Origin: Stegostoma tigrinum
Lineage: Eukaryota
NCBI RefSeq assembly: GCF_030684315.1
Contig: NC_081354.1
Span: 28,948,226-29,012,225, forward strand
Length of the DNA stretch: 64,000 nt
Direction of reading: 5' to 3'
Positions 11,104 through 59,873 of the stretch are shown piece by piece; positions within the stretch are counted from its first letter, which is position 1, and each line of letters opens with the position of its first letter. Both the position numbers and the translations under genes were made by a program. The notes below the pieces were generated by a model. The model did no database searches. It was not told where the DNA came from and saw only the letters and a list, made by a program, of their open reading frames with translations.

Positions 11104-12343
11104 TCTGGCTCCCTCATTTAATCTATTGCAAAGTAATATCCAAAGTATGTTTTTGTAATTGTAATAGAAACCAATGACTGAAAGAAGAGCCATTGGATAC
11201 TGCATATTGGCAAATTCCATAATAATAAAACTTTATTAATTTTTGATAAAAGATCATTTATGCTTACGTTTCAGTATTGTTTGACTCTGTGTTATTACCC
11301 ACACTTACCTTTCACATACACATTTCCTTAGCCCAAGAAAATATATTTACAAAACATTTGCAAAATCTGTATTTATATTCATACAGAATCAAAGCATTGC
11401 AGAAGTGCATCTTTTCCATATGTGAAAATCCCTGCAGGGATCTGCGCTGGGTCCTCCACATTTTACAATTTGTATCAATTACTGAGACAAAATGCTCAAA
11501 GACATGGAGAAAAAATTTGCAGATGGCATAACATATTTCCTATCTATGTTGTGAAGATGTGCCTCTCATGTTTCAATAGGGAGTGTAGTAGAAATCAAGC
11601 CTTGATATTCCCAAAGTCACGAAAATTAAAGATTTCAAAGGAAATACACTAACTCCCCAAAGTAACTGATTTTTAGACCCAGCTTGACAAACCACCAACC
11701 AGATTTCTGTATTTAACAAGAAATAATATTCACTCTAGGTTATTCTAGCTACAGGTAAATAATTAAACTAAATTAACTTAATGCTACAAAATAAAACCCT
11801 AAAGCTACAATAAACACCATCGTACACAGATACTCAGGCAAAACACAAAATAACACATGGGTACAGGGAAAACAGGGGGAAAATATAGGTCCATAGTATT
11901 TGATGAGATCTGTTGGGTTGGTTCTTATTGTTGCCCATGATTTGGACATTTGGACAACTTTACGTATTAAAACATTACGAAAGCGCTCTTGAACGTGAGG
12001 CGGAAAAAACAGACACTAATCAGTTTGCGCATCAACTTGATTTTATTAACAAACTATTCCTTATTAAAAACACCATGTGAGCATTTCACAAAATTCCACC
12101 GTATTTACTCTCTATCCAGCTACATTTGCATGAAAAAGAATATTATCCACAATGATCCATGTGTTTGACCCAGGCCTTTGGAATATCCTTCCTCTCCAAT
12201 GGAGGGCTGGCTTTCTTCCACAAAAGTGGATCTCCTCCCGTGTCTGAGATAATGGGAACTGCAGATGCTGGAGAATTCCAAGACAACAAAATGTAAGGCT
12301 GGATGAACACAGCAGGCCAAGCAGCATCTCAGGAGCACAAAAG

Positions 12344-12373
12344 CTGACGTTTCGGGCCTAGACCCTTCATCAG
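12344..12373 (-). ncRNA. Minimal hammerhead ribozyme motif (intact core)
   Basis: Minus strand CUGAUGA-A-GGGU CUAG GCCC-GAAAC-GUC-AG. Confidence 0.8.
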
Positions 12374-12897
12374 AGAGGGGGATGGGGAGAGGGAACTGGG
12401 ATAAATAGGGGGAGGCGGACCGAAGATGGAGAGTAAAGAAGATAGGTGGAGAGAGTATAGGTGGGGAGGTAGGGAGGGGATAGGTCAGTCCAGGGAAGGT
12501 CAAGGTGGTGGGATGAGGTTAGTAGGTAGATAGGGGTGCGGCTTGGGGTGGGAGGAAGGGATGGGTGAGAGGAAGAACCGGTTAGGGAGGCAGAGACAGG
12601 TTGGACTGGTTTTGGGATGCAGTGGGTGGGGGGGAAGAGCTGGGCTGGTTGTGTGGTGCAGTGGGGGGAGGGGACGAACTGGGCTGGTTTAGGGATGCAG
12701 TTGGGGAAGGGGAGATTTTGAAACTGGTGAAGTCCACATTGATACCATTAGGCTGCAGGGTTCCCAGGCGGAATATGAGTTGCTGTTCCTGCAACCTTTG
12801 GGTGGCTTCATTGTGGCACTGCAGGAGGCCCATGATGGACATGTCATCTAAAGAATGGGAGGGGGAGTGGAAATGGTTTGCGATATACTAGTCACGA

Positions 12898-15068
12898 TTG
12901 GACATAGAGCAGTTTTTCCGCCGTCTTCGCCTCCATGCCTACTTCTTCAACCGGGAGCCTAACCCTCCCTCCACTGACCCCTTCACCCGCTTCCAACACA
13001 AGTCCTCCTCCTGGACACCACCCCCAGGCCTCCTACCCTCCCTCGACCTCTTCATCTCCAACTGCCGTCGAGACATTAACCGCCTCAACCTCTCCACCCC
13101 TCTCACCCACTCCAACCTCTCCCCCGCAGAACGGGCAGCCCTCCGCTCCAACCCCAACCTCACCATCAAACCCGCAGACAAGGGTGGCGCAGTGGTAGTA
13201 TGGCGCATTGACCTCTACATCACCGAGGCCAGACGCCAACTCTCCGACACCACCTCCTATCACCCCCTCAATCATGACCCCACACCCGAGCACCAAACCA
13301 TCATCTCCAACACCATTCATGACCTCATCACCTCAGGGCACCTCCCACCCACAGCCTCCATTCTCAGTGTTCCCCAACCCCGCACGGCCCGTTTCTATCT
13401 CCTTCCCAAAATCCACAAGCCTGCCTGCCCTGGTCGACACATCGTCTCAGCCTGCTCCTGCCCCACCGAACTCATCTCCACCTATCTAGACTCCATTTTC
13501 TCCCCTTTGGTCCAGGAACTTCCCACCTACGTCCGTGGCACCACCCACGCCCTCCACCTCCTCCAGGACTTCCAATTCCCTGGCCCCCAACACCTCATCT
13601 TCACCATGGATGTCCAGTGCCTATACACCTGCATTCCACATGCAGATGGCCTCAAAGCCCTCCGCTTCTTCCTGTCTCGCAGGCCCGACCAGTCCCCCTC
13701 CACCGACACCCTCATCCGCCTGGCTGAACTCGTCCTCACACTCAACAACTTCTCTTTTGACTCCTCCCACTTCCTATAGACTAAGGGGGTGGCCATGGGC
13801 ACCCGCATGGGCCCCAGCTATGCCTGCCTCTTTGTAGGTTACGTGGAACAGTCCCTCTTCCACACCTACACAGGCCCCAAACCCCACCTCTTCCTCCGGT
13901 ACATTGATGACTGTATCGGCGCCGCCTCTTGCTCCCCACAGGAGCTCGAACAGTTCATCCACTTCACCAACACCTTCCACCCCAACCTTCAGTTCACCTG
14001 GACCATCTCCAGCACATCCCTCACCTTCCTGGACCTCTCAGTCTCCATCTCAGGCAACCAGCTTGTAACTGATGTCCATTTCAAACCCACCGACTCCCAC
14101 AGCTACCTAGAATACACCTCCTCCCACCCACCCTCCTGCAAAAATTCCATCCCCTATTCCCAATTCCTCCGCCTCCGCCGCATCTGCTCCCACGATAAGA
14201 CATCCCACTCCCGCACATCCCAGATGTCCAAGTTCTTCAAGGACCGCAACCTTCCCCCCACAGTGATCGAGAACGCCCTTGACTGCGTCTCCCGTATTTC
14301 CCGCAACACATCCCTCACACCCCGCCCCCGCCACAACCGCCCAAACAGGATCTCCCTCGTTCTCACACACCACCCTACCAACCTCCGGATACAACGCATC
14401 ATCCTCCGACACTTCCGCCATTTACAATCCGACCCCACCACCCAAGACATTTTTCCATCCCCACCCCTGTCTGCTTTCCGGAGAGACCACTCTCTCCGTG
14501 ACTCCCTTGTTCGCTCCACACTGCCCTCCAACCCCACCACACCCGGCACCTTCCCCTGCAACCGCAGGAAATGCTACACTTGCCCCCACACCTCCTCCCT
14601 ACCCCTATCCCAGGCCCCAAGATGACATTCCACATTAAGCAGAGGTTCACCTGCACATCTGCCAATGTGGTATACTGCATCCACTGTACCCGGTGTGGCT
14701 TCCTCTACATTGGGGAAACCAAGCGGAGGCTTGGAGACCGCTTTGCAGAACACCTCCACTCAGTTCGCAACAAACAACTGCACCTCCCAGTCGCAAACCA
14801 TTTCCACTCCCCCTCCCATTCTTTAGATGACATGTCCATCATGGGCCTCCTGCAGTGCCACAATGATGCCACCCGAAGGTTGCAGGAACAGCAACTCATA
14901 TTCCGCCTGGGAACCCTGCAGCCATATGGTATCAATGTGGACTTCACCAGTTTCAAAATCTCCCCTTCCCCAACTGCATCCCTAAACCAGCCCAGTTCGT
15001 CCCCTCCCTCCACTGCACCACACAACCAGCCCAGCTCTTCCCCCCCACCCACTGCATCCCAAAACTAG
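12898..15068 (+). pseudogene. PLE polyprotein (RT, Cys-rich linker, GIY-YIG endonuclease), 5'-truncated, one stop and one frameshift
   Basis: FFRRLRL, IKPADKGGAVVV, FYLLPKIHK, TMDVQCLYT, GVAMGTRMGP, RYIDD, TFLD; PCNRRKCYTCPH linker; NVVYCIHCTRCGFLYIGETKRRLGDRFAEH; TAG at 13777-13779; frameshift near 14600. Confidence 0.93.
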
Positions 15069-15072
15069 TCCA
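14969..15072 (+). repeat. Three ~38-bp tandem units at the end of the PLE ORF
   Basis: Repeating ccactgca(t/c)c...aaccagcccag units encoding PTA..NQPSSSPP; also present at 12600-12705 (minus) and 22857-22960. Confidence 0.8.
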
Positions 15073-15316
15073 ACCTGTCTCTGCCTCCCTAACCGGTTCT
15101 TCCTCTCACCCATCCCTTCCTCCCACCCCAAGCCGCACCCCCATCTACCTACTAACCTCATCCCACCTCCTTGACCTGTCCGTCTTCCCTGGACTGACCT
15201 ATCCCCTCCCTACCTCCCCACCTATACTCTCTCCACCTATCTTCTTTACTCTCCATCTTCGGTCCGCCTCCCCCTCTCTCCCTATTTATTGCAGTTCCCT
15301 CTCCCCATCCCCCTCT

Positions 15317-15346
15317 CTGATGAAGGGTCTAGTTCCGAAACGTCAG
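15317..15346 (+). ncRNA. Minimal hammerhead ribozyme motif (stem II weakened)
   Basis: CTGATGAAGGGTCTAGTTCCGAAACGTCAG. Confidence 0.7.
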
Positions 15347-16213
15347 CTTTTGTGCTCCTGAGATGCTGCTTGGCCTGCTGTGTTCATCCAGCCTCACATT
15401 TTGTTCTCCTCCTGTGTCTTCTTAGATTGCAGCACATCTTCTGCCACAAGTCTTCACTGAGGGGGCGTTTCAGTGTGTGCTTTTACACACATTGCCCCAG
15501 ACCTTCCCAAATGTGTGGTCTTCATCCAATTGAGTCACAAGCTGGGTTGAAAACCTCCAATGCACTCACGCCAACACCCTTAGCTGTTGCTCTGCCAGGA
15601 GATGTAAAGTGCACGTCCTCAGGTGTCAGCTGGAGTCAAGGTGACCAGAAGCATGATTCAAAACTTCTTTAATACACAACCCTTGGGCTGGTTGTAACTG
15701 GTTCCCCCTGAATCTGTGACCTCTTTGACCTTGGTTACCACTGCTCTCTGCAGCCAATGTCTGCTGTTTAATTTAGTTTGGCCAATTTACTGTCAGGCTT
15801 GATTTCTCCAACTGTGGATTAAATAGAACCTTCAATTTTGGGCCCTGTGGTCACTTGACCACACTTTATTTTTTCTGAACGTTTCCATGAGTTTGTAAGA
15901 GGAACATGGTGGCTGGTCCATTTATGAAAGTGGACTTATACAATTGAAACTTACAATTTGCAGCATCTGCTGGAAGAAAAATCAGTTTTCTTCAAGTTTT
16001 CTACTGCGAAGAAAAATTTTGACCGCTGCAAATTTGTTAGTTTATCTTGAAGGTCTGGAAAATTCAGGGGTTCCTCCAGTATCTCAAAGTTTGCTTGACA
16101 TTCTGCTGGTCACACTACTTTTGCTCATCACCAACAGATTAATTGAAGGCACGGCTATCGCAAGTACATTTCTAGTAAATGCCAAACATCCCAAAAAACC
16201 TCATGATTTCACA

Positions 16214-16429
16214 GAGATAATGGGAACTGCAGATGCTGGAGAATTCCAAGATAATAAAATGTGAGGCTGGATGAACACAGCAGGCCAAGCAGCAACTCAG
16301 GAGCACAAAAGCTGACGTTTCGGGCCTAGACCCTTCATCTGATGAAGGGTCTAGGCCCGAAACATCAGCTTTTGTGCTCCTGAGATGCTGCTTGGCCTGC
16401 TGTGTTCATCCAGCCTCACATTTTATTAT
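16214..16429. mobile_element. Palindromic PLE-terminus mini-element with hammerhead
   Basis: Arms 16249-16339 and 16341-16431 (2 mismatches) centred on T16340; plus-strand core CTGATGA...GAAACATC at 16339-16368; TSD CTCATGATTTC(A/T)CA at 16200-16213 and 16430-16443. Confidence 0.9.
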
Positions 16430-17319
16430 CTCATGATTTCTCATTTAGTTTTAAGAACATGGAATTCTAAAATAGTCTTCAGTTTTGCTTGTTGTTATCC
16501 AACAATGTCATAAACTCATCTTCTCTAAATTCTCCAACGTTGTATTAAACAACCCAACTACAATTGATAAAACAGGACTTCAACTTATCCCACATGCTCT
16601 TCCAATATGTCACTACTTAGTACAGCATCATCTAAATAGACCATGCAATTACAAACTCCAACTACTACTTGATTCATAAGCCTCATGGAACGTAGAAGGG
16701 CATTCTTTAAAAAGCTTCACATGATGTGTTACACCAAATGAGTTATACCAAAACTGACATTTCTTTAGCCTTTGGTATTAAAGGCACTTTCCAGTACCAC
16801 ATCAATAGAGGAATCGTTGAAAGGAATGTTGCACTAGCAATGCTACCAATGCAATTGAGTACGAATTGAGTATGCCACATTCACCTCTCTATCATGTATA
16901 CAAAATCTAGTTGATTCATTCTGTTTAAGAACCAACACTACAGATGGACTCTAGCTGCTTTGACTAGGTTCAAATGAGTGATTTTCCAGTATGTTCTGAT
17001 CCTGTTTCCAGTCAAGCTTGTTTTTCTGTGCTTACCCAATAATGTTGTTATGGCTCTCGCATATTTGCATCTAGCTAATCAAGTTGTATCTCCACAGAAT
17101 ACTCTACGTTTCCTTAGTAATCTTAAGATCCCCCAATTACCTTTAACTGTAAGAACACAGTGCCTAGCAATACCAATATTTCACTGTTAGATAGTCAAGC
17201 TGTAGGAGGCTCTCTGAGAACTGTCTACTTGTTCTTCTACCTCACTCTTAACTCCATCATCTTCCAATAAATTCCAGCCTGACATACTCGGTCATTTAAT
17301 GAGGATCATTTCAGAGAAG

Positions 17320-17944: not shown

Positions 17945-18080
17945 GAGATAATAGGAACTGCAGATGCTGGAGAATCCAAGATAACAAAGAGCTTTCTGAT
18001 GAAGGGTCTAGGCCCGAAACGTCAGCTTTTGTGCTCCTGAGATGCTGCTTGGCCTGCTGTGTTCATCCAGCTCCACACTT
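17945..18080 (+). mobile_element. PLE-terminus mini-element with intact hammerhead core (17996-18025) and inverted tail
   Basis: CTGATGAAGGGTCTAGGCCCGAAACGTCAG; perfect TSD TGCTATGCTAATA at 17932-17944 and 18081-18093. Confidence 0.88.
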
Positions 18081-19435
18081 TGCTATGCTAATACCTTGAT
18101 TATTTCTGCCTTTCTGGTTGTCAGGCAGATCTCCTCCAGTTTGATCAGCAAGTCTGTCAATGTGGATTTCGAAAATTCCCTTAAGACTACCACAGAGAAC
18201 TCTGTCACCCACAGGAAAGCTTTTGCAATTTTACTGATATGACTTAAATGCAGTCCGGAACCTGTGTTATTTATTGATACCACACCCAAATCTTCAATGT
18301 CTGTGTTTCTAATCCAATTTAATCCGGGCCACGAGGCCCCAAATTTTGGAAGGACTGTGCAAACTGTTACAGTTCTCTAAATTCTCCCCAGATAGCTGGT
18401 GTCAATTTCTGACATCTGAAACAAAAACAAAGGGCTGGAGAAATTAAGCAGATCTGGCAACAGCTGTGGAGCTAAAAAAGAACAGAGTTCAAGTTTCAAG
18501 TTCAGTGACCCTTCTTCAGAACTGAAAGCAACTGAGAAATGATGGTATTCATGCTGATGACTGAGGCTGGAAACGAGTAAGATGAATAGATGAAGACAGG
18601 GCCCAGAGAAGATAGGCCCAGAGAGGATAAATTAGAACCACACAAAGGGTTGTTTATAGTAAACCATGTGAGAAGTAAATGCTTAATGGGTGATATTGGG
18701 AAGTGTGAGTAGATGATAATGGGTTGTTTGTGCTGAGACCAACCCATATAGAACAGGACCTGGGGTGCAGGGCTGGGTAATGGACATGGGAGGGGGAGAA
18801 AAAGGTCTTCACACTCTGAGATTGTTAAACCCAATGTTAGGTTCTGCGGCCTGTAAAGTACCTAGGCGGAAAATGAGGTGTTCCTCCAGCTTGCATTCAG
18901 CTTTGCTGGAGCACTGCATGGAAATGTTGTCATGGGTACATGGTGGTGTGAGATGGAAATGTTGATGTGGGAACATGGTGGTGCATTGAAGGACCAGGCA
19001 ACTGGAAACCTGGGGTCATTCTTACAGACAGAGCAGAGGTGTTCTGCAAAGCAGTCACCCAGTTTGTGTTTCACCACCCCAGTACAGAGGATTCAACATT
19101 GAGAGCAACAGACTAAATTGAATGAAGTGTAAATAAATCGCTGCTTCATCCAAAGGTATATCTGGGACCTTGGATAGTGAGGAGGGAGAAGGTAAACTAG
19201 CAAGTGTTGCACCTTCTAAAATTGCATGAGGAGGTGACGTGGGGTAGGGGAGGCATCTGGAGTACAGTATGAGGTGGAATCAAGGTATCAGTCTTTGCAG
19301 AATGCTGACAAGGGAAGGAAGGAAACATGCGGCTGGTGATGGCAACTGGGAGGGAGAGGAAATGGCAGTTTATGGTCCTCTAGATGTGGTGGCTGATGTG
19401 GTGGGAAGTGAAGACAAGGGGTACTTATCATTGAT

Positions 19436-19530
19436 AGATAATAAAATGTGAGGCTGGACGAACGCAGCAGGCCAAGCAGCATCTCAGGAGCACAAAAGCT
19501 GACGTTTCGGGCCTAGACCCTTCATCAGAG
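19436..19530 (-). mobile_element. PLE-terminus mini-element with intact hammerhead core (19499-19528)
   Basis: Matches the 12285-12375 terminus and stops just 5' of CUGAUGA. Confidence 0.85.
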
Positions 19531-20163
19531 ATTGTTGTGGAATAGAAGAGCAGGGATAAGGGCCAAAGTGCGGGAAATGGATCAGACACAGCTCATGGTC
19601 ATATTGACTGTGACAGGGGGAATCCATGGTAAAGCAAAAAGGTGGACATTTAAATCCCCTGCAGAAGGTAGCCTGATAAAAACAGATGCAATGAACAGAA
19701 CAGAGAAAGTGAAATGGAGTCCATGCAGGAAGTTGGATGTGAGGATGTACAGCTAAGGTAACTGGAGCCAGTGGGCTTGTAGTTCAAACTGGTAGCCAGC
19801 CTGACCACAGAAGCAAAATCAGGGATGTCAAAGCAGAGAAGGGGGGAGTCAGAGGTGGACTAGGTGAGAAGGACAGAAATTTTGATTGATTTATTGCTGT
19901 CACACGTTCTAAGATACTGTGAAAAAGTGCAGTTTTGCGTGCTGTACAGGCAGATCATAATGTACAAGATGCATCAGGGTAGCACAGCAGAGTGCAGAAT
20001 ACAGTGTTACTGTCGCAGAGACGGTGTAGTGTGCATGAGAGGTCCAAATTAACATTTGAGATGAGTATGCAAAAATCTGATAACAATGGGAAAAAACCAT
20101 TGGAAATTAGAAGAAAAATTGATAAATTTTTCCCAATTCCAGTCAAAAGACAGAAGTAGCACC

Positions 20164-21050
20164 GATAGCAAGGTGTAGAGCTGAATGAACACAGCAGGCC
20201 AGGAGGCATCAGAGGAGTAGGAAAGCTGACGTTTCGGATCTGGACCCTTCTTCAGAAATGGGGGAGGGAAGGGGATTCTAAAATAAATACAGAGACGGGG
20301 GAGGCAGATGGAAGGTGGATAAAGGAGCAGATAGGTGGAGAGGAGACAGACAGGTCAAGGAGGCGGGGATGGAGCCAGTAAAGTTGAGTGTAGGTGGGGA
20401 CTGGCAAGGATGAGGCTGGCAGGTAGGAAGTGGGGGTGGGTGTTGGTCAGTGAGGTGGGAGGAGCGGATAGATGGGAGAAAAGACAGGCAGGTATAGGAG
20501 GCGGGGACAAGCTGGGCTGGTTTTCGGATGAGGTCGAGGGTGGGGAGATTTTGAAGCTTATGAAGTCCACATTGAGACCATTGGGCTGCAGGGTTCCCAA
20601 GCGAAATATGAGGTGCTGTTCCTGCAACCTTTGGGTGGCATCATTGTGGCACTGGAGGAGGCCCAGGATGGACATGTCGACAAGGAGTGGGAGGGTGAGT
20701 CGAAGTGGGTCGTGACAAGGAGGTGCGAATTGGGCATAGGTGTTCCACAAAGCAGTCTCCAAGCCTCTGCGTGGTTTCCCCAATGCAGAGGAGGCCACAT
20801 CAGGAACAATGGATACAATATATCACATTAGCAGATGGGTAGGTGTACATCTGTTTAACGGGTAAGGTTTTCTTGGGGTCTGACACGGGGATGAGAGGGG
20901 AGGTGTAGGGGCAGGTGTAGCACTTCCTGCAGTTGCAGGGAAAAGTGCCAGGGGTGGTGAGGCCTGTGATGCTGCTTGGCCTGCTATGTTCATCCAGCTC
21001 TACACCTTGTTATCTCAGATTCTCCAGCAATGGCAGTTCCTACTATCTCA
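20164..21050 (-). mobile_element. Second PLE subfamily, 3' fragment with inverted tail; hammerhead at 20226-20255
   Basis: DMSILGLLQCHNDATQRLQEQHLIFRLGTLQPNGLN; core CUGAAGA-A-GGGU CCAG AUCC-GAAAC-GUC; inverted piece ~20967-21049; TSD AAGTAGCACCGA(T) at 20154 and 21051. Confidence 0.85.
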
Positions 21051-21689
21051 AAGTAGCACCGATGATGTCATTGATGTACTGCAGAAAGAAACAGTTGTGG
21101 GGAGGTGCATGAGTAGGATTGGAACAAGGAAAAACTTCCAATATCCCACAAAGTGACAGGCATAACTGGGGCCCAAACATGGCCACACCTTTGATCAGAG
21201 GAAAGTGAGAGGAGTTCAAGGAGAAATTGTTCAAAGTGAGGAAGACCTCAGCCAGGTGGAGCAGAGTGACAGTGGATAGGGACAGTTCAGGCTTTCCTTC
21301 AAGGAGAAGCAAAAAGAGTTCCAAGGCCATCCTGATGGAGGTAGATACGTAAAGGAATTACAGTCTATAGTGAACAGGGGAATGTTGATGCCAGCAAACC
21401 GGAAATTCTGAAGCAGATGTAAAGCCTTAGAAGAATGCAAGGAGGGAGAGATAGGAGAAGGGGAGAATAAAAAACAAAGTCGGAAGAAATAAGATTAATG
21501 GGGCAGGAATAGGCTGAAACAATGGGTCTGCTCAGGCAGTCCTATTTGTGAATTTTGGGAAGAAGGGTAAAGTAGAGACTGAGATGTATGCTGTGAATTT
21601 GAGGGGTGGAATTGCAGCGAAGAGAGCTGCCCAAATGAAATAAGGTTAGTGTCAATAACCTGTTGAAGCCTGGTGAACATCAGCTCCAG

Positions 21690-24640
21690 TTGTTGTCTCA
21701 TATGGAGAGGAAAGGAGTTGCTTTTACCATAACTGACTAATCGCTTTTATTTATGTATTATGAAAAGGTACATGTATGGCTTATACATTAGACAATACAC
21801 AAATAACTCAGTTGTTTTCCTGAAAGAACTAGAACCTATTTGTACACCACAAAAGGCCACTAACACTTCCAGAATTATCACAGGATATAAAAGCTAATAC
21901 CCATGCAGAAAAGCTGCTGTGGCTGTGCGGATTGACATTAGCCAGATATCGCCCTCGATGCCATCACATCCTGAAATGAGGGGTGCGCTTCTACTAAAGA
22001 TGATCTCTGGAGTTTTTGCTGGTTGCATGCCCCAAGGGTTATTTTCTTCTTTTTCCTGATCTTTCTCAAGTCATGTTGTCTCTTTCTTATGATTCAGGCT
22101 AATTCAATTATCACATCTTTATCTTATTGGCCCTAGACCAGAGATTTAGGTAGCATTACCTCATTGCTCCTTGTACAAATAAGGCTTTTGCATTGCCTCA
22201 TCTTTCTTACTTTTTTGCAGAACTTCGCTGGCACCAAGTGGTTCTGACCAGCTCTGGCCAGCTCCTAGATTATCCTCAGTTCACAAGCTGCTTCTTTCTT
22301 TATGTCAGCATTTTTTTTTACCTTCAGTATCTCTTGTTAATAATATTCGTGACTGACAGCCCCTATTTTCAACTTTCTCTGCAGCTTCTGGTCAGCATCT
22401 CCCAGGCAGTGATGACAATGGCTGGCATGCCTGCCTCTCTCTCTCCCCCGCTGCAGCCCCTGGCTAACAAGCCAAAACAATAGCTGCTGTTCAATGATGG
22501 AGTCATGGTCCGGGGGAGATAAGAAGCTATGTCCAAGAGCCAGTGAGGATGCATTACACTCAAAATATGAAATCTATTTCTCTCTCCACAGATGCTACCA
22601 GACTTGAGTTTCAGAGCTCCATCATCTGGACTTCTTTGTTTTAGAACATAGAACATTACAGCGCAGCATAGGCCCTTCGGCCCTCAATGTTGCGCCAACC
22701 TGTGAAACCAATCTGAAGCCCATCTAACCTACACAATTCAATTATCAACCAATTGCCACCCGAAGGTTGCAGGAACAGCAACTCATATTCCGCCTGGGAA
22801 CCCTGCAGCCTAATGGTATCAATGTGAACTTCACCAGTTTCAAAATCTCCCCTTCCCCAACTGCATCCCTAAACCAGCCCAGTTCGTCCCCTCCCCCCAC
22901 TGCACCACACAACCAGCCCAGCTCCTCCACTCCACCCACTGCATCCCAAAACCAGTCCAACCTGTCTCCGCCTCCCTAACCGGTTCTTCCTCTCACCCAT
23001 CCCTTCCTCCCACCCCAAGCCGCACCCCCATCTACCTACTAACCTCATCCCACCTCCTTGACCTGTCCGTCTTCCCTGGACTGACCTATCCCCTTCCTAC
23101 CTCCCCACCTATACTCTCTCCACCTATCTTCTTTACTCTCCATCTTCGGTCCGCCTCCCCCTCTCTCCCTAATTATTCCAGAACCCTCACCCCATCCCCC
23201 TCTCTGATGAAGGGTCTAGGCCCGAAACATCAGCTTTTGTGCTCCTGAGATGCTGCTTGGCCTGCTGTATTCATCCAGCCTCACATTTTGTTGTCTTGGA
23301 TTCTCCAGCATCTGCAGTTCCCATTATCTCAATTATCAACCATCTGTTTATCCAATGACCATTTAAATGCCCTTAAAGTTGGCAAGTCTACTACTGTTGC
23401 AGGCAGGGCATCCCACGCCCTTACTCCCGAGTAAAGAATCTACCTCTGACATCTGTCCTATATCTATCACCCCTCAATTTAAAGCTGTGTCCCCTCATGC
23501 TATTAGTTTAGTATTCCATGTCTTCCCCTTCAACTGCTCCATTTGAACCTTATAGTCACATTCTCTCTCGTCATCTTTATAGGTTCATAATCCTGAGAAA
23601 ACTCCTCTAACAACAAAGCATAAATTTCCTATGCTTTACCTATCAATTTACTCATTTGCCTAATTAATTTGAGAATGCCTCCAAATCTTTTTCCTCAAAT
23701 TTAAATGGAGTATTAGCTACCCTAAAATCCGTTTGAAGTATTACTGTGACCTCTGGTGATGGACTTTGTTTAGCCATGGCTCTGGTCACTACTTATGGTG
23801 GATTAACACCTGTAACCTGATCCTCCAAATTGTTCCATCTCCTCAGCCTCAACTTAGCTTTGCATGATTACAGCTCGTATGCAGAGGAAAAGAGTCGCTT
23901 TCACCATAACTGACTAATTGCTTTTATTTACATTTTGTGAAAAGGTACAAGTATGGCTTATACATTAGACAAAACACAAGTAACTCATATGTTTTCCTGA
24001 AAGAACTAGCACCTTGTTGTCTCAGATTCTCCAGCATCTGCAGTCCCTGCTATCTCTGCATCCTGTAGGTTTCGCTTTCAACTTCCAGAATTGTGAATAA
24101 ATACATTGCAAGTTGTTACAATAGAAATGTCTTGGTTTCTAATTTACACCTCCACTCTCAGTATTATCCCTTCCAACCGTAGGAGGGGACATTGAGGTAT
24201 TCCCAGCTATCCATTTCTTACCTTGGTTACTGCCTTCATTTCATTCAATGTACATCCTTTTACATTTGAATGTGAGACAGAATAAAGGATTAGTTTTATT
24301 GTTTAATTCAAACATCAGCTTTTTTTTGTTGCCTATCTACCAACTGCAATCCCTTGGCGCTCAATAAGAGTTCTTATTAAAGAAGGTAGTGTGTTTTTAG
24401 ATTCCTCTAAGAAAATAATCTAAAAACTTCATTGATCATTTCAGTTTCTAATGCTCTTAATTACCTGTTTAACCATTTTGAATTCAGTATAGGTTTCCCC
24501 AGGCTGATTACTTAACTTCTGGAATCTTTGCTTATTTGCCTCAGGCACAAACTCATGTGGCAATAGTTTTGAAAAGCACAAAAATAAAAAGAGACATTGG
24601 TCTATACTGGTCTGCATTCTTGTTATGTGAGCAGGCAAAA
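21690..24640 (-). mobile_element. Decayed Gmr1-like Gypsy internal fragment (gag/protease/integrase region)
   Basis: HEFVPEANKQRFQKL..QPGETYTEF (24441-24638), IIFLEESKNTLP (~24385-24420), VVTRAMAK (~23770-23792). Confidence 0.55.
22752..23330 (+). mobile_element. PLE 3' fragment with tail; hammerhead at 23204-23233
   Basis: Near-identical to 14867-15404 and adds the 3' tail; TSD AATTATCAACCA at 22740-22751 and 23331-23342; inserted into a CR1 3' fragment (~22640-23500, minus). Confidence 0.9.
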
Positions 24641-25519
24641 ATCTAGCAGCTGGAATATAATGTAAAATTATTCACTCTGGCAGGAAGAATAACAAAGCAG
24701 CGAGTTAGTTAAAAGGTAAACGGCTGCAGAATTCTGATGTGCAGAGGACTTTAGGTGCTCTCATTCATGAGTCACAAAGAGGTTGGATGCAAGTATATAT
24801 GCAAGCGATTCAGGCGGCAAATGAAACGTTAACTGTTGTTTTGACAAGAATTGAACATAAGTAAGAATATTATACTGTTGTAAAATATAAGGAGAGAACT
24901 GCCCTGGAAGTCCTCAACATTGACTGCAGACCCTATGATGTCTCATGGCTTCAGGTTAAACATGGGAAAGAAAACCTCCTGCCGATTACCAAATACCATC
25001 CTCCTTCAACTGATGAATCAGTATTCTACGTTGATCAATATTTGGAGGATGCAGGATTTCAAGTTCTACCACCAAAAGTGGCTTGGCAGCAGCATTACAA
25101 ATGGTCAGGACCTAAAGAATGTGGTTGTTAGATTAGGTCTGCAGCAGGTGGTGAGGGATCCAATAAGAGAACGTACGAAGTATCAAAGTAATAAAGTATC
25201 AAGATTTTTTGAAGACGGGTCTAGGCCCAAAACGTCAGCTTTTCGGCTCCTCTGATGCTGCTTGGCCTGCTGTGTTCATCCACCTCTATTCCAAATTTTC
25301 TTACATTCTATAACAGTTCGATTTTGCTGGTTCATATAAAAGTTTATGAATACAGAAATTATTTTTATTAGAAACCTGAACTTAATCTGAGAAAGTTAAA
25401 CACATATCCCAACTGTATCCAAGACGGTGGCTCTGCTGAATAATTTTCTTGACAGATGTGCTGCAATTAGAGAGTTTTTCTGTTATTGTTATGGAATATT
25501 GTTTTGGAATATTGCAGTT

Positions 25520-25798
25520 AAACTTTAAGGTGAGAGGGGAAAGATTTAAAGAGGACCTGAGGGGTAACTTTCTCACAGAGAGGGTGCTGCATATCTGGAA
25601 TGAGCTGCCAGAGGAAGTGGTGAAGGTAGCTAAAATAATGACATTTAAAAGGCATCTGGATGGGTATATGAATGGGAAGGGTTTAGATGGATATGGCCAA
25701 AGCTGGCAAATGGAACTAGGTCAGATTGGGATGTCTAGTTGGCGCAGACAAGTTAGAACAAGGGTTTATTTCCATGCTGTATATCTCTATACTCTATT
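25520..25798 (+). mobile_element. CR1/HER1 3' end fragment
   Basis: FKVRGERFKEDLRGNFLTERVLHIWNELPEEVV. Confidence 0.8.
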
Positions 25799-26320
25799 CA
25801 TTTAGCTTCAACAAACTTCCTTTCTTCCTCTTCTTTTTATTTCCTATTTATAGGGCCTTTAAGTCTGTGAGCTTAATTTAGTGGAAACACTTCAATATCA
25901 ATATCCTTTCATTGCACAATATTCAGAATGTATTCTGCAAATTTATTACATAAACATGTCATTTTATTTACCAGACAGATGGTCACGTTTCTGGATCTGT
26001 GACAGTGAAAAGAAAACTTTTGAAACAGAAGCAGGGTTCCCCCTTCTTTCCCAGTTTTATTTTTGTTCCAAGTTATTAGCTCCAAGGTAAGCCGCATCAT
26101 TATTAGTGCCAACCAGAATTTACACAAGCAGCCTTGGTGACTCTTTCACGATTGAAAGTAAATCACTCAACAGTTATCAGCTCAACACTCTCAGGAGTTT
26201 TCTTCTTCAATATCTCATTTGCAATTGTTTGAATAGCTACTTCAAGTAACTGAGCATAAAAATCTTCTGGATACAAGCAAACCACTACTTCTTGCTAAAG
26301 CAGAGATAGTTTACATTCAA

Positions 26321-26371
26321 GACAACAAAATGTGAGGCTGGATGAACACAGCAGGCCAACACAGGAATCCA
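26321..26371 (-). mobile_element. 51-bp PLE-terminus insertion
   Basis: gacaacaaaatgtgaggctggatgaacacagcaggcc; perfect TSD AGTTTACATTCAA at 26308-26320 and 26372-26384. Confidence 0.85.
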
Positions 26372-31580: not shown

Positions 31581-31675
31581 GAGATAACACAGTATGAAGC
31601 TGGAGGAACAAAGCAGGCCAGGCAGCATCAGAGGAGCAGGAAAGTTGATGTTTTGAGTCAGAACTCTTCTTCAGA
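31581..31675 (-). mobile_element. PLE-terminus mini-element with degenerate hammerhead (31645-31674)
   Basis: Minus strand CUGAAGA-A-GAGU UCUG ACUC-AAAAC-AUC; flanking repeat AGATACTGAGA at 31574-31584 and 31673-31683. Confidence 0.75.
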
Positions 31676-39250: not shown

Positions 39251-39419
39251 CAAAATTCATTGAGGGAACAACACACAAGATAAAGTAAGATGTTTCCCTC
39301 AAAGACTGGGTGTGGTAGGGGAGATTACAGGATGAGGAGGACACAATCTTAAAACAAAGGGGAATACCATATTAGTAATAACTTTTTTACTCTTTTTAAA
39401 TATTGGCAAATAGAGTTGT

Positions 39420-40312
39420 TCAGCACAGAAATAGGCCCTTTGGTCCAACTCATCAGCATCAGACATCCCAATGTGACCTAGTCCCATTTCTCAGCATTTG
39501 ATCTCTATGCCTCTAAACCTTCCCTTCCCACATACCTATCCAGATGCCTTTTAAATGTTGTAATTGTATGCACCTTCATCACTTTCTCAGGCAGCTGGTT
39601 CTATATATGCAGGAAAAAGTTACCTCTCAGGTCCTTTTCAAATCATTCCCCTCTCACCTTAAACCTATGCCTTCTAGTTTTGGACTCTCCCATCCTAGGA
39701 AAATGACATTGACTTTTCATCCCATCCATGGCCCTCATGTTTTTATAAACATCTGAAAGATCACATCTCTGCCACCAACACTCCAAGGAAATAAAGCCCC
39801 AGCCTATTCAGCCTCTCCCTAAAGTTCAAACCCTCCAGTCCCAGTAACATCCTCGTAAATCTTTTCTCGAGTTTAACATCCTTCCTAAAGAAAGGCAACC
39901 AGAATTATATTAAGTATTCTAAAAATGGCCTCACCAATGTCCTGTTCGGCCATAACGCAACTGTATACTCGGTGTACTAACCGATGAAGGCCAGTGTGCC
40001 AAACACCACCTTCATCATCCCAACTACCTGTGACTCTACTTCCAAGGAACTATGCACTTGCATTCCTAAGAGTCTTTGTTCAGCAACACTCTTCAGAACC
40101 TCATCATTAACTATATAAGTGCTGCCCTGGTTTGCCTTACTAAAATGCAACACCTCACATGTAAGTAAATTGACCTCCATCTGCCACCCATTTGCCCATC
40201 TAATCAAGGTCCTGTTGTACTCAGATAATCATCTTCCCTGTCCACTATACCACCTATTCTGGTGTCATCTGAAAACTTACGAACCATACCTCATATATTC
40301 ACATCCAAATCA
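39420..40312 (-). mobile_element. CR1/HER1 3' fragment
   Basis: WANGWQMEVNLLTCEVLHFSK. Confidence 0.8.
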
Positions 40313-43989: not shown

Positions 43990-46820
43990 ACTAAATAGAA
44001 CTGTACAGCATCAAAACAGACCCTTGTTATGCCAACCAAATATCTTAAATTAATGTAGTCCCACTCGCTAGCATTTGGCCCATGTCCCTTCTTATTCATA
44101 TACCCATCCACACGGCTTTTAAATGTTGTAATAGTACCAGCCTCCACAACTTCCTGTGGCAGCTCATTCCACGAACGCACCACCCTCTACATGAAAAAGT
44201 TGCCCCTTAGGTCCCTTTTAAACTGTTCTCCTCTCATTTTAAACCAATGCCCTCTAGTTTTGGATCCACACGCACCCCAGGGAAAAGACCTGACTATTCG
44301 CCCTATCCATGCCGCTCATCATTTTATAAACCTCTATAAAGATCACCGCTAAGCCTCTAATACTCCAGGAAAAATACTTCCTACGTTCACATCTAAATCA
44401 TTTATATAAATGACAAAAAGAAGTGGAGCCAGCACTGATCCTTGTGGCACACCGCTGGTCATTAGCCTCCGGTCTGAAAGCAACCCTCCACCACCACCCT
44501 TTGTCTTCTACCTTCAAGCCAGTTCTGTAACCATATGCCTAATTGTCCCTCTATTCCATGGGATCTAACCTTGCTAACCAGCCTACTATAAGCAGCCTTG
44601 TCTAACGCCTTACTGAGGTCCATACAGATCACTTCCACTACTCTGCTCTCTTCAATATTCTTTGTAACTTCTTCAAACAACATGATCAAGTTTGTGAGAC
44701 ACGATTTCCCACACATAAAGCCATGTTGCCTTTCCAAATACATGTAAATTCTGTCCCTCAGGATCCATTTCAACAACTTGCCCACCAGTCTATAGTTCCC
44801 TGGCTTTTCCTTACCAATTTTCTTAAATAGTGGGACCATATTAGCCAACATCCAGTCTTCTGGCACCTCGCCTGTAGCTATCTATGGTACAAATATCTCA
44901 TCAACAGGCCTAACAATCTCTTCCCTAGCTTCCCACAGGGTTCTAGGGGACACCTAATCAGATCCCAGGAATTTATCCACCGTTATACATTTTAAGACAT
45001 CCAGCACCTCTTCCTTTGTAATATGGACATTTTTCAAGGTATCGCTTATTTACTTTCCCACCTTCTTTATGTTCCATATCTTTCTCTAGAGTAAACACTG
45101 ATGCAAAAAACCTTGTTTAGTATCTTCCTCCTTCTCCTGCAGTCCCACACATGGGTGGCCTTACTGTTCTTTGAGGGGGCCTATTCTTTCCCTGGTCATT
45201 CTTTTGTCCTTAACTACTTGTAGAAACTGAGATAACAAAGTGTGGAGCTGGATGAACACAGCAGGCCAAGGGGCATCTTGTAGAAACCCTTTGGATTCTC
45301 CTTAACTCTATTTGCCAAAACTATCTTGTGTCCCCTTTCTGTCCTCGTGATTTCACTCTTAAATAAACATACTGCCTTTATACTCTTCCAGGGATTCAGT
45401 CAATCCTTGCTGTCTAAACCTGCCATATGCTTTTTATTTTTGACCAAAACCTCAATTTTTCTCGTCATCCAGCATTCTCTACACCTATCGGCCTTACCCT
45501 TCACTCTAACAGGAAGCCATTGTCTATGGACTCTATCTTATTTTTGAAGGCTTCCCATTTTCAAGCCATCCCTTTACCTGCAAGTGTCCATCCCCAATCA
45601 ACTACTGAAAGTTCTTGCCTCATACCGTCAAAATTGGCCTCCCTCCAATTGAAATCTGGTCTTTTAGATCTGGCCTATCCTTTTCCATCACAAAACTAAT
45701 AGAATTATGGTCACTGGCCCCAAAGTGCTCCCTCACTGACACATCAGTCACTTGGCCAGGCTTATTTCCCAAGAGTGGGTCAAGTTTTGCTCCTTCTCTA
45801 ATTGGTACATCCACTTACTGAATCAGAAAATTTTCTTGTACATACTTAACAAATTCATCTCCATCTAAGCCCGTAACACTATGGCAGTCCCAGTCTATAT
45901 TTGGAAGTTAAAATTCCCTACCATAACCACCCTATTAATCTTATAGATAACTGTGATCTCTTTACAATTTGTTTCTCAAATTCAACTGACATTTTGGTGG
46001 GGGAATCTATAGTCCAATCCCAACAAGGTGATCATCCCTTTCTTACTTCTCAGTTCCACACAACTTCTGTGGACATATTCCTAGGAGTATCCTCCCCGAG
46101 TACAGCTGGAATATTGGCAATAATCACAAAAGGCCACTCCCCCTCCTCTCTTGGCCCTCTTTCTATTCTTTATAAAGCATCTATGCCCTGGAACATTAAG
46201 CAGACAGTCCGGTCCATCCCCGAGCCACGTCTCTGTAATTGTTATGATATGCTAGTCCCATGTTCCCAACCATGCCTGAGTTCATTTGCTTTACCTGTTA
46301 GGCCTCTTGCATTGAAATGAATGTAGTTTAATTTATCAGTCATATCTCGTTCTCTGCTTTGATCCTGCTTGCCCTGACTATTTTGACTTCGTCCTGTTCC
46401 CAACTGCACCAGTCTGAGACTGATCTCTTTTCACACAGTCTCCCTGGGTCCCACCATGGCCTCCCCACAACCCCCGCTTCTCCCGAGTGACTCTAGGAAA
46501 TCGCCCCACCAGTATATTAGCCCCTTCCAATTCTCATGCAATCTTTCCTTCTAGTCCAGGTCACTTATATCCCAGAAGATATTTCAATGATCCAAAAATG
46601 TGAATCCTTCTCCCCTGCATCAGTTTCTTAGCCATGCAATCATCAGCTCTATTATCCTACTCCTACCCTCACGAGCTGATAGCACTCAGTGATCCAGATA
46701 TTACCACCCTCCAGCACCTAATTTTTAAAATTTCTGCCTAACTTCCTACATTCTCTCCTTAGAGTCAGGTCCTTTTCTCTTCCTATGTCATTAGCTCCAA
46801 CGTATACAATGACGTGCTGC
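43990..46820 (-). mobile_element. CR1/HER1 LINE, internally deleted (ORF1 esterase end, endonuclease, RT start, 3' end)
   Basis: PEDWMLANMVPLFKK...NYR...QHGFMCGKSCLTNL...DLSKALDK; HFGASDHN; WNELPQEVVEA. Confidence 0.85.
45228..45276 (-). mobile_element. 49-bp PLE-terminus insertion inside CR1
   Basis: gagataacaaagtgtggagctggatgaacacagcaggccaag; TSD CTTGTAGAAAC at 45217-45227 and 45277-45287. Confidence 0.85.
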
Positions 46821-51830: not shown

Positions 51831-51849
51831 AAGAAAAGAAATACTAAAT

Positions 51850-55202: not shown

Positions 55203-55243
55203 TCTTTGTTCCGCGCTATCATGGATTCAATCAACCAATTAAT
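55203..55243 (-). CDS. Candidate exon (INWLIESMIARNK)
   Basis: Strong acceptor acttttctttcag and donor GA|gtgagt; frame linkage to neighbours not established. Confidence 0.4.
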
Positions 55244-55544
55244 CTGAAAGAAAAGTTCCTAATCTTCAAGCAAGCCTCTAGAAAATCTAGCCATCCTCAC
55301 TGTTCATAATTTCCCATTATAACTCTGTTATCCTACAAAATACATCTTCTGTCACAGCCCAAGAGCTCAAGAACCATTATTCTTCATGACTGATGATCTC
55401 GGTCTAAGACCAATTACATTTCCTCAAACAACATTTATCTAGCTCTTGTTTGAATGAGTTTAATTAATACATCTGCTTGGAGACAATCTTTACACCACTT
55501 TTTGTGAAGGAAGGCTCAACTTCTGGAATGTTAACTTTAAGAAT

Positions 55545-57325: not shown

Positions 57326-57722
57326 TTTTTTTTTCCACTGAATCTCAGTTTCTGGACTCTCGATTTTATGATAGCATCTTAGGAAACCTGCTGCCGGCCG
57401 CCTTACTACTTCTGCAAACAAAATGAAAACAAGTTCATTTTTGTGATCTTTGCCTCACAATACAGAGCTGCAAGTTCCATGTTCAATCTCCAGCCTTTCA
57501 ATGAATACAGTCTCCAACTCTTGAATATCCTTCAATAGGAATGACTGTAGATTGACTTAATCATCGAGATACAATATGGCTAGGGTGCCATATATTGTGT
57601 TAGCCCCTGATTATCTACATTAACAATGATAAAAGCTTCCAGTTAAGCTTCAGGATGCAGTCACATTTTGAAGATTCTGAAATAGCAGAAAATTGTAAGT
57701 CACATTAAATAGCTCAAAACTA

Positions 57723-57805
57723 AGATGCTGCTTGGCCTGTTGTGTTTATCCAGCTCCATACTTTGTTATCTCGGATTCTCCAGCATCTGCAGTTCCCATT
57801 ATCTC
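57723..57805 (+). mobile_element. PLE-terminus insertion with tail
   Basis: agatgctgcttggcctg...ggattctccagcatctgcagttcccattatctc; flanks A(G/T)CTCAAAAC at 57711-57720 and 57806-57815. Confidence 0.8.
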
Positions 57806-58240
57806 ATCTCAAAACAATACTGTTGCTTTGCATTATGAAACAGAAGGGAAGACAACTACTTCAACAAACTCAGCATAGCAATTTATGCATCGGCAACCAC
57901 TAAAACAAGGAAAGCAGATGATGTGTAATATGGTAAATGTAAAATATATCTGAAAAAGCAAATATTTCAGAGCTCATAATGTATTACCAAATATGTGGCT
58001 CTCGAAACCTTTAACTAAATTACAAGCCCATGGCCCCAACTTTACATGAAGCATATCATAACATCAAACAGTTATAAATAAAACAGAATGAAACAACTTT
58101 TGCAGTTTTGATGTAAAATAATTTAGAGAAGAAAAGACAAATCAAACATTTTTTCTGGGAGGTGATTTCAGGTTTTCTGCTATCATTAATTTTTGGCTCT
58201 TTTTCATAAAGTTAGACAAACAAAATAATACTGAGTTAAC

Positions 58241-58347
58241 CTTGACGTTTTCTCTGCCGAGTTCTGGATTTCCTACGTATTTTCAATTTGCCTTCCTTTT
58301 CAAAATAGATTGGAGGCTTCTGGACGAAGGAGGACAGTTCAGCCAAG
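58241..58347 (-). CDS. Candidate exon (LAELSSFVQKPPIYFEKEGKLKIRRKSRTRQRKRQ)
   Basis: Acceptor aaattcag, 35 open codons with a basic NLS-like run, donor CAAG|gttaac; splice signals only moderate. Confidence 0.4.
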
Positions 58348-59744
58348 CTGAATTTCATTTCATTATGGCAATGATGAAGTGAAAGGTGAAGAGTTAATGT
58401 AGCATCAACACATCGAGATCAGCCTCAGTTGCTAAACAAATTAAAATGAATAAAATCAAGTTATTCTACAAATAAAATATTCAAACTATAAAACTTGTGT
58501 CTCTTTTCCTTCAAATCTGTTTACTTCACTAACAGGATTGCATTCTGGGTTACAGAGACACTGTTGCCATAGTATAGTATCTTGAAAATTGTATCTTGCG
58601 TACTGAGCAATTCACAACAAAAAGAGCAGTAAAGTGGATTAATAATAGAAAAAGAAATTGTGAAATAGTCATACTAATGACATTTATTTCTCTTTTAATT
58701 TGGTGTCATGCTTCCCCATTCTAGCAACCCATCGCAAGCAGTGGCTAACATATCCACAGATAGCAATAGTTTGTATAAACTAGGGCATTGTGCCCCAGGG
58801 GGCATTCAATTGGGTGTGGAAGTAGCCAAATTTCGCTGATCATCACTTTGTAAACACCCAATAAAAACAGGAGCTGAAACTCTAAATTTATTTTGTTATC
58901 TAATCAACCACTGTGTCATGGGCTTTTGGCTTCAGTCAGCTATTTGTACCTGAAACTTAAGTTGTAGTTTGTACTATAACTTACGTTAGCTCCCGTAACA
59001 GAAAAAGTAGGTGTGTGTAACAGCGCTCAAACATTCAATAGATATTTATTATTGCTCCTATATATAGTCACAAACACATCAGCATCTGGACTAACATTAA
59101 AAAGGTGTTTGGTTACAAACAGGCTTATGAAGCTTGGTAGTGTCATTCTTCAAGTGTCCTGGTGAAGATTATGTCAGAGACCTTTATACCTATTGCCTGA
59201 GAATGCTGAAGCTAATTATATCACTACCTACTTATATTCCAAGCAAAGTCATCCAACTGAAACTAGCACTGTGCTGTACATTGTGGGACACTACTCTGGT
59301 AAATCAATGAAGATACTGAAGACATTTGTGTTGGATCTGGATGGGATACTCTTCGGAGGGTTGGTGTGCACTCGATGGGCCAAATGGCCTGCCTTCACAT
59401 GGGAGGGATTCTATGAACTTCTATGCTTTCCCTGTGCTGATTGAAATGAGGCAACTACAACTGTAACTATACCTGTCACTCAAAATTTTTAAAAAGCTGT
59501 ACATTTTTCAGAAAGATAATGCACTTCAATAACCACTAAATCTACACACAAATACATCAAGACACTCAGGTATACAGGCACAGGTTAAAAAGCTTATGTG
59601 AACAGATACACATCCTCCAAGTAGAATGCTCAGTTTTCACTTCAGACAAGACTGCACTTCCTTCCTGGCCCTAGCTAACTTAAAAGATGATGTTGGATAT
59701 TCTTAAAGTTTTAATTTTATAGTCCCTCTTAGAATATGGGTAAA

Positions 59745-59873
59745 AACAGAAAAAAAAAGCTGCAGATGCTGTAAGTCAGAAGCAGAAATTGCTGGCGAAG
59801 CTCAACAGGTCTGGCAGCATCTGTGGAGAGAAAGCAGGTTTAACGTATTGGGTCGAGTGACCATTCCTCAGAT
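59745..59873 (-). mobile_element. Terminus of a more distant PLE family with degenerate hammerhead
   Basis: Minus strand CUGAGGA-AU-GGUC ACUC GACC-CAAUAC-GUU. Confidence 0.55.

Follow-up and report, generated by a model that had tools for sequence, protein, structure and literature searches.

We analysed a 64,000-nucleotide stretch of Stegostoma tigrinum DNA (NC_081354.1, positions 28,948,226 to 29,012,225 of assembly GCF_030684315.1), referred to below as the window, in which a first-pass annotation had described small dispersed insertions carrying a hammerhead ribozyme motif together with a Penelope-like element (PLE). Positions relative to the motif are numbered from the C of CUGAUGA (+1), which places the predicted cleavage after +28. 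A short copy of the hammerhead-bearing end that lacks the upstream pseudo-long terminal repeat (pLTR) of the element is called a mini; RT denotes reverse transcriptase and TSD target-site duplication. The copies found in the window are listed here.

12233 and 15407: 13-bp TSD of a 3.2-kb insertion
12246..12883, minus strand: inverted arm of the 3.2-kb insertion, with pLTR, hammerhead (core C at 12373) and a long tail to +128
12884..15408, plus strand: forward arm, a 5'-truncated, broken, putatively Neptune-type PLE (RT, Cys linker, GIY-YIG) followed by pLTR, hammerhead and a short tail (+92)
12892..14625, plus strand: RT region with YIDD and a CxxxxCxxC linker, interrupted by an in-frame stop (13777-13779) and, close to its end, by a frameshift
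14502..15068, plus strand: frame of a GIY-YIG endonuclease that has CCHH-type residues (match to Pfam PF01541 at E=5e-4, which falls short of the curated cut-off)
15283..15289, plus strand: TATA-like box TATTTAT, recognised by sequence, 30 nt above the inferred start
15313..15316, plus strand: probable transcription start (-3, TCT-type motif), suggested by a 5'-end peak and an extra G, and 5' strand of stem I
15317..15346, plus strand: predicted minimal type I hammerhead, made up of CUGAUGA, A, stem II, GAAA and ACGU and predicted to be cut after +28 (15344)
16200 and 16430: TSD of the 216-bp palindrome, CTCATGATTTC
16214..16429: 216-bp head-to-head mini palindrome centred on the hammerhead 5' edge, with one long and one short tail
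17933 and 18082: 12-bp TSD of the 137-bp mini
17945..18081, plus strand: 137-bp mini made of an inverted piece (+84..+127) and, joined to it, a forward arm spanning about -3/0 to +87
19436..19531, minus strand: 96-bp mini (hammerhead 19499), from -2 to the short tail; TSD sought around it, none found
20166..21051, minus strand: older-subfamily insertion (0.9 kb), a 0.78-kb arm plus a short inverted arm; 11-bp TSD at 20155 and 21052
22752..23329, plus strand: 578-bp 5'-truncated copy with pLTR, hammerhead 23204 and long tail; 13-bp TSD at 22739 and 23330
24014..24056, plus strand: tail-only fragment; TSD sought, none found
25208..25286, plus strand: degenerate mini beginning at the core
26321..26371, minus strand: 51-bp mini without the hammerhead core; 13-bp TSD at 26308 and 26372
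31585..31672, minus strand: old mini beginning at the core; 11-bp TSD at 31574 and 31673
45228..45276, minus strand: 49-bp mini, +45 to the short tail; 11-bp TSD at 45217 and 45277
57721..57807, plus strand: 87-bp mini, +45 to the long tail; 8-bp TSD at 57713 and 57808
59742..59878 (approximate boundaries), minus strand: mini belonging to family B, a second hammerhead family of greater age, beginning at -4; weak 8-bp repeat

A motif search located all seven main motifs where the first-pass annotation had put them, with plus-strand cores at 15317, 16339, 17996 and 23204, and minus-strand cores whose C lies at 12373, 19528 and 20255 (lower bounds 12344, 19499 and 20226). The degenerate copies at 25209(+), 31645(-) and ~59845(-) are likewise present, the last belonging to family B. 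The description of these copies as tiny insertions with their own TSDs fits a part of them. Four of the seven main motifs (12344, 15317, 20226 and 23204) sit in insertions of 0.58-3.2 kb, and 12344 and 15317 are the two ends of the single 3.2-kb head-to-head insertion. Among the six tiny copies (16339, 17996, 19499, 25209, 31645 and 59845) a clear TSD bounds three (16339, 17996 and 31645), and weak 6-8 nt repeats flank two. Absent from the earlier description were the second arm of 16339, which makes that insertion a palindrome, and the four shorter coreless copies at 24014, 26321, 45228 and 57721. A degenerate family-B-like hammerhead was also seen at 18440-18519 (minus strand), and an old GIY-YIG fragment at 19028-19062 (minus strand).

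The hammerhead-bearing copies share the core CUGANGA...GAAA...UH with a paired stem II, which differs between families and stays paired, although it is damaged in the 15317 copy. Stem I has 2 bp in the main family; judged by eye, families B and C have 3-4 bp versions of it with compensatory changes. The palindromic ACGU attributed to the family is present in five of the seven main copies; 16339 and 23204 both read ACAU because of CpG decay. An Rfam search of the window at gathering thresholds returned no match for the hammerheads. We assign the motifs to the minimal type I hammerhead of a Neptune-type PLE. The third family (C) has a long stem II and an A-U instead of a U-A first stem I pair (stretches L080, L104, L023, L017, L155 and L178), and its upstream sequence is kept in most copies.

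The PLE and Neptune-type features noted earlier were borne out. In the RT frame, YIDD and DKG motifs are visible by inspection, while Pfam and PDB searches with the RT region gave no match. The linker CNRRKCYTC, in frame 13780-14625, fits the CX2-5CxxC pattern which, between RT and endonuclease, is a Neptune feature shared with Nematis (PMC8557442). At the C-terminus the GIY-YIG domain scores 20.7 bits against PF01541 (cut-off 22.6), with VY..C..C..YIGET visible. The pLTRs in tandem or inverted order and the optional tail complete the layout of an endonuclease-bearing PLE, and it is this layout, not RT phylogeny, that points to a Neptune-type element. Three imperfect 39-nt pLTR repeats lie directly after the endonuclease frame (12586-12713 and 14961-15072). 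The long copy at 12884-15408, proposed earlier as the autonomous partner, is dead, since it is 5'-truncated and carries a stop and a frameshift; solely its family could be the driver. The 40 best-scoring matches to the 5' part of the element are 98-100% identical, and the family is young. A longer natural copy (L127) has the order pLTR, hammerhead, tail and then the first ATG of the open reading frame (ORF) at +167. On the minus strand of L127 there is also a short upstream frame from +47 to +130, with its ATG at +47 in frame with the main ORF and its TGA coinciding with the end of the long tail; it could be an upstream ORF or be read through. In the PLE ORF, a repeat linker of the PTADADGT type, variable in length, separates the N-terminal part from the RT (L127, L125 and L132).

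The first-pass annotation had further proposed that the insertions scatter potential self-cleaving sites through host introns, which the predicted structures do not support. The lowest-energy fold of the monomer is predicted to be a hairpin over +1..+30 and not a hammerhead, and the structure predicted on co-folding two monomers was not the hammerhead dimer. The window palindrome (16214-16431) is predicted to fold into a ~90-bp duplex of -182 kcal/mol in which the core is buried. Since single minimal hammerheads gave no cleavage in vitro (PMC4209133) and the palindrome folds as a duplex, cleavage of host transcripts or introns by single minis is unlikely.

Abundance and 5' ends of the copies

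A descriptor of core plus stem II gave 99 matches in an unselected sample of 104 stretches of 10 kb (1.04 Mb) against 3 in the reversed sequence, and an exact hammerhead 31-mer had 92,385 matches across the genome (3.2 Gb), where the control had 0, so that the motif frequency is far above chance. A 31-mer from the RT core had 8,765 exact matches, about one-tenth as many. A second sample, of 50 stretches of contig 1 picked for an exact core, favours young copies. Of the 238 arms in the unselected set, 229 satisfied the edge and length filters and were assembled into 177 insertions. Of these, 61 are single minis and 45 are head-to-head mini pairs; the others comprise 60 single long copies, 7 long pairs and 4 mixed cases. 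The upstream pLTR is thus missing from 106 of the 177. There is indeed a large excess of terminus-only copies, as had been proposed, and the copy-length distribution is not smooth, as the coverage step described next also illustrates. Scaled to the genome, these figures correspond to something like half a million insertions, of which 60% lack the upstream pLTR, an estimate which is rough because the chaining of long arms is imperfect.

The 5' ends of the minis are sharply placed. In the unselected stretches, coverage stays level at 81 arms between -30 and -9 and then rises to 138 at +1; of 300 copies, 53 begin at -5 to 0 and none at -11 to -6. Genome-wide, the core with 12 nt of native upstream sequence has 51,381 exact matches, compared with 78,807 for the core with 12 nt downstream, from which it follows that about 35% of the copies lose the native sequence within those 12 nt. 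Exactly at -3 begin 5,672 copies, and of 100 listed, 85 (hand count) have an extra G before -3, where ~27% would be expected. The excess remains when copies with a GAG prefix are left out (49/64), and also when GAG, AGG and AAG prefixes, which an inverted arm could explain, are all removed (29/44, again against ~27%). In DNA contigs from one sample, the best-supported loose ends were at 0, -3 and +3, and the equivalent of the extra G was seen at -3 in both of two runs. A search of sequencing runs listed four contig sets, all of this one sample, and no RNA set, a result with no bearing on expression. At the junctions of full-length L1 copies, an additional G is a mark of the cap (PMC11702581).

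Upstream of this edge lies a TATA-like box, at -33/-34 in 134 of the 137 box-bearing copies, which belong to one family and are not independent. In three subfamilies the box stands 30 nt above a TCT-type or initiator (Inr)-type motif at -3/-4; the 0.78-kb arm of the 20166..21051 insertion has a TATA-like box, an Inr-type CCATTTC and the hammerhead at 20255. In family B, whose upstream sequence is unrelated to that of the main family, a TATAAA lies at -32 and the Inr A at -3; of 96 copies, 41 begin at -6 to 0 and none at -15 to -9. Copies of family B, which has a 4-bp stem I, also form palindromes (stretches L239, L107 and L090). We infer that the PLE mRNA begins at -3 and that the pLTR holds a TATA-TCT/Inr RNA polymerase II promoter; the minis would then be without a TATA box because they begin at the transcription start. 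A pLTR promoter has been published (PMC6765202, PMC2377424), the Drosophila promoter being TATA-less.

Other causes of the edge were considered and set aside. A splice acceptor is rejected, there being no AG in -7 to 0 and no sharing of the upstream flanks, as is hammerhead cleavage, whose predicted site is ~30 nt downstream of the main peak. The 5' ends that seemed to lie at +37 and +45-48 proved to be mostly artefacts of aligning older subfamilies to a young reference, and were not used.

Head-to-head pairs and ends at the predicted cleavage site

At the other side, the copies end at +89-95 or at +125-128, the two tail sites of the PLE. In the anole PLE, two internal RT start sites match the tail, both target strands are nicked and extended, and the region downstream of the RT starts is required, for binding (PMC11167929). 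Palindromes centred at the 5' edge of the core number at least 5,558 genome-wide and have many different junctions; a single palindromic master element is rejected, as the junctions differ between copies. The two arms almost always have different tails: one long and one short tail were found in 47 of 50 callable unselected pairs (56 pairs in total) and in 83 of 86 callable pairs of the wider set (95 in total). In their 5' extent, on the other hand, the arms agree, both being short or both long in 90 of 95 pairs. TSDs bound 74 of 98 pairs, compared with 5 of 489 swapped controls; they are mostly 14-15 bp long (mostly within 13-17) and are 64% AT.

The two arms also share their sequence peculiarities. 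Rare variants are common to both arms in 21 of 282 cases (0.8% when arms of different pairs are compared), and the subfamily marker agrees between arms in 40 of 43 pairs, showing that both arms of a pair come from the same source. The arm that extends further 5' in mini pairs is the short-tail arm in 28, the long-tail arm in 22, with 9 ties. Since either arm may reach further, two cDNAs are needed, and snap-back of a single cDNA is rejected. In long pairs the correlation of arm lengths is not significant (rho 0.34, p 0.11, n 23). For head-to-head PLE palindromes, antisense self-priming has been proposed (PMC3846280); the present data favour priming from two nicks on sense RNA.

A minor class of 5' ends lies at the predicted cleavage site. 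Ends exactly at +29 number 2,402 genome-wide, compared with 371 at +28, these being the two positions around the cleavage site covered by the genome-wide counts, and the +29 ends show no G bias (6 of 26 unambiguous rows). Palindrome centres are rare inside the ribozyme (161, a figure which may be undercounted, perhaps twofold, as its anchor borders a CpG) relative to the sequence just downstream (1,802). Likewise, the furthest 5' end of mini pairs falls at -8 to +12 in 57 of 67, at +13 to +28 in none and at +29 to +41 in 10. Tandem joints in the contigs fall exactly at +29 in 5 of the 12 rows listed of 131, and in 3 of 3 in another set. On balance, we lean slightly towards the view that the ends at +29 are copies of RNA that had already been cleaved, and thereby decapped, by the hammerhead.

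Origin of the minis

We propose, with a probability of roughly 0.7, that the minis are run-off cDNAs, and dead ends, copied from the opening ~100-130 nt of the capped mRNA of the PLE itself, and not a self-propagating short interspersed element (SINE). The mRNA would start at -3 under the TATA-TCT/Inr promoter of the pLTR, and would therefore open with the hammerhead and have both internal priming sites within its 5' leader. Nicks made by the endonuclease in the two target strands would lie ~14-15 bp apart and would prime reverse transcription at different tail sites. Each cDNA would extend to the 5' end of the RNA and copy the cap, and its end would be joined to the target or to the other cDNA through short microhomology, much as if a retroviral strong-stop cDNA were integrated immediately. 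For long copies, RNA that reads through the whole pLTR would be required. The minis, being promoterless, are likely dead.

Several observations count against this account. Start, cap and cleavage are all read from genomic DNA, and the motif at -3/-4 and the box upstream are putative TCT/Inr and TATA elements by their resemblance to the consensus. A subfamily whose upstream sequence differs makes the peak at position 0 too high, none of the few read-through copies inspected began cleanly at -3, and the contig sample may be the one from which the assembly was made. The share of minis differs between subfamilies (12/45, 20/31 and 26/34), so that different source loci, including non-autonomous tandem arrays, may supply the RNA. 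Five of the 95 pairs are mixed long/short, and gene conversion between arms could be partly behind the shared variants. For the +29 class, ~62 of the 100 listed ends are the palindrome AAAAGCTTTT, and the class is ambiguous because arms ending at +29, +30 or +31 all yield this sequence; 12 further ends of the 100 are microhomology fold-backs. The base of the predicted +1..+30 hairpin could stall the RT, and young sampled arms (n=257) begin at +29 in 2 cases, +31 in 2, +32 in 3, +36 in 5 and +38 in 5. In the anole system, hammerhead mutants did not alter insertion, and none of the RNA-seq reads ended at the cleavage site (PMC11167929).

The edges might alternatively be RT stops and fold-back hotspots on long read-through or antisense RNA, with the +1..+30 hairpin and a C-rich upstream tract stopping the enzyme and local palindromes letting the cDNA snap back. 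The predicted monomer hairpin, the recurrence of junctions on short self-complementary words and the published proposal of antisense-template self-priming (PMC3846280) all fit such a scheme, and for the +29 class it is a live explanation. As a general account we nevertheless consider it unlikely, as it leaves unexplained why the extra G is found at -3 and is absent at +29, why the 30-nt TATA spacing recurs in two families with unrelated upstream sequence, and why arm lengths agree within pairs. Moreover, snap-back of one cDNA could not give further-reaching arms of both tail types, and the equally palindromic ACGT at +24 was used in just 7 of 50 listed loci of 161. Still less probable, in our estimation, is a supply of RNA mainly from promoter-bearing tandem deletion derivatives (non-LTR retrozymes) that borrow the PLE protein, the minis being by-products. 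Tandem arrays with periods of 166-362 nt do exist in the genome; the units inspected consist of the first 200-400 nt downstream of the core plus the last 40-250 nt of the pLTR, keeping promoter, hammerhead and tail. The unequal mini shares also suit this source, and retrozymes derive from PLE pLTRs (bioRxiv 10.64898/2026.07.22.740005). However, one read-through 31-mer has 1,709 exact matches in arrays and full elements combined, no marker links minis with arrays, and such a source would alter the origin of the RNA and not the insertion mechanism.

The first-pass annotation had favoured a SINE-like unit, itself transcribed and re-copied by the Neptune element, that spreads active self-cleaving sites. 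About 10 core matches per RT-core match, defined ends and TSDs of their own speak for it. A SINE would have a promoter and a signal for re-mobilisation, as well as subfamilies of its own. The minis lack the upstream promoter and its TATA box (the search did not extend to RNA polymerase III boxes) and end by about +133, short of the downstream region that binding requires in the anole PLE (PMC11167929); their junctions vary; at three diagnostic sites every well-sampled variant occurs in both minis and long copies, with no mini-only subfamily; and both monomers and palindromes are predicted to fold into non-ribozyme structures. We regard a self-propagating unit of this kind as very improbable. 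Ordinary random 5' truncation of a 3'-anchored retroelement would suit the smooth fall of coverage upstream of -30 and the heavy 5' truncation and inverted copies typical of PLEs (PMC8557442), and for the long class it holds. As the explanation of the minis it has next to no credibility, being refuted by their non-smooth 5' ends, with the sharp step at -5 to 0, 0 of 300 ends at -11 to -6, the trough across the ribozyme and the extra G.

Taken further, the run-off account would make the genome a fossil record of a whole PLE RNA cycle: a TATA-initiated mRNA opening with the hammerhead, a protein dimer that always gives each target strand one priming site, cap-bounded strong-stop cDNAs integrated by the hundred thousand, and thousands of insertions from RNA cleaved by the hammerhead in the germ line. 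This full picture is tentative, and we would sooner expect one of its parts to fail than all to hold.

Head-to-tail arrays were observed at G000:C1 49657924-49658678, 104860940-104862286, 140329155-140330181 and 165409523-165411118, and also in L086, L103 and L218; beside the periods given above, that of L086 is 440 nt. The inspected units are internal deletion derivatives with promoter, hammerhead, tail and ORF start. Such arrays are retrozyme-like and could in principle form dimers, and they may supply part of the RNA. Apart from the PLE copies, the window holds the 5' part of a CR1-like long interspersed element (LINE) at 62092-63740 on the plus strand, with an SGNH esterase frame (PF13472) and an apurinic/apyrimidinic endonuclease frame (PF03372), and decayed LINE fragments of one family at 6490-7471, 10187-10437, 25440-25805, 35918-36846, 39416-40312 and 44082-44881, one of them with an RVT_1 match.

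Relation to known elements and significance

A miniature inverted-repeat transposable element (MITE) has equal terminal inverted repeats, a short fixed TSD and a fixed interior. The minis are not MITEs: their arms are unequal, the TSD is mostly 13-17 bp and the centre varies. PLE hammerheads, their dispersal as single motifs, tails and inverted arms have already been published (PMC4209133, PMC8557442, PMC3846280). Described Neptune PLEs resemble the present element in having RT, Cys linker, C-terminal GIY-YIG, pLTR, an inverted 5'-truncated arm and an optional 30-40 bp tail at one end, and a TATA and an Inr-like motif were noted in a rotifer pLTR (PMC8557442, PMC3846280). In contrast to them, most insertions here are 50-220 bp long and appear to be bounded by the transcription start, and the tail asymmetry is counted (83/86) and tied to two-strand priming. 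The Anolis Poseidon element PAc also has its hammerhead just upstream of two internal RT starts that define the tail, nicks and extends both strands at AT-rich targets, and is predicted to act as a dimer (PMC11167929). The PAc ORF begins inside the hammerhead, whereas in the present element the long ORF has its first ATG at +167, and the available part of the PAc account has no cap-bounded minis, no split of start sites per event and no sign of cleavage in vivo.

The minimal type I hammerheads of metazoan PLEs share the core, the extra base before stem II, the palindromic ACGU and the short stem I; they are mostly single dispersed motifs, "probably related to truncated PLEs", with some opposite-strand pairs 100-700 bp apart (PMC4209133). 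Counts here are ~10 times those of coelacanth (4,000) and Xenopus (9,000) in that work and near the 126,247 canonical motifs of axolotl (PMC7229834); what is added is a proposed origin for the single motifs. Non-LTR retrozymes are likewise non-coding, pLTR-derived and equipped with a type I hammerhead (PMC7229834; bioRxiv 10.64898/2026.07.22.740005). They consist of two or more head-to-tail hammerhead units, as found elsewhere in this genome, whereas the minis are single or head-to-head and promoterless. L1 twin priming is alike in that the opposite nick primes a second RT reaction, the TSDs are discrete (12-18 bp), the internal junction shows microhomology and the cap leaves an extra G (PMC11702581). 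It differs in that the element here has two fixed internal priming sites, and its cDNAs overlap by ~90 nt and so give palindromes instead of abutting. Our literature searches found no account of cap-bounded or palindromic PLE minis, no counted rule of one long and one short tail and no insertion ends at the cleavage site; Repbase, Dfam and the supplements of PMC4209133, PMC11167929 and the bioRxiv preprint lay outside their scope, and the supplements could contain elasmobranch motifs or insertion ends.

The mode of PLE integration and the role of the PLE hammerhead are open questions; the sole reconstituted system found cleavage dispensable and saw no trace of it in RNA-seq (PMC11167929). The insertion ends described here would map the start site, the cap, the strand-split priming sites and possibly the site of cleavage, all with a precision of a few bases, and so yield exact predictions for the ends of PLE RNA and for insertion products. 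The dispersed single hammerheads of PLE-rich genomes would be explained as by-products, which cautions against naming such copies SINEs or MITEs. The genome would also contain thousands of ~90-bp perfect hairpins, giving double-stranded RNA if transcribed. If RNA cleaved in the germ line is indeed copied, the ends at +29 would be the first in vivo sign that the minimal hammerhead of a metazoan PLE cuts, and the ribozyme would act as a self-decapping switch.

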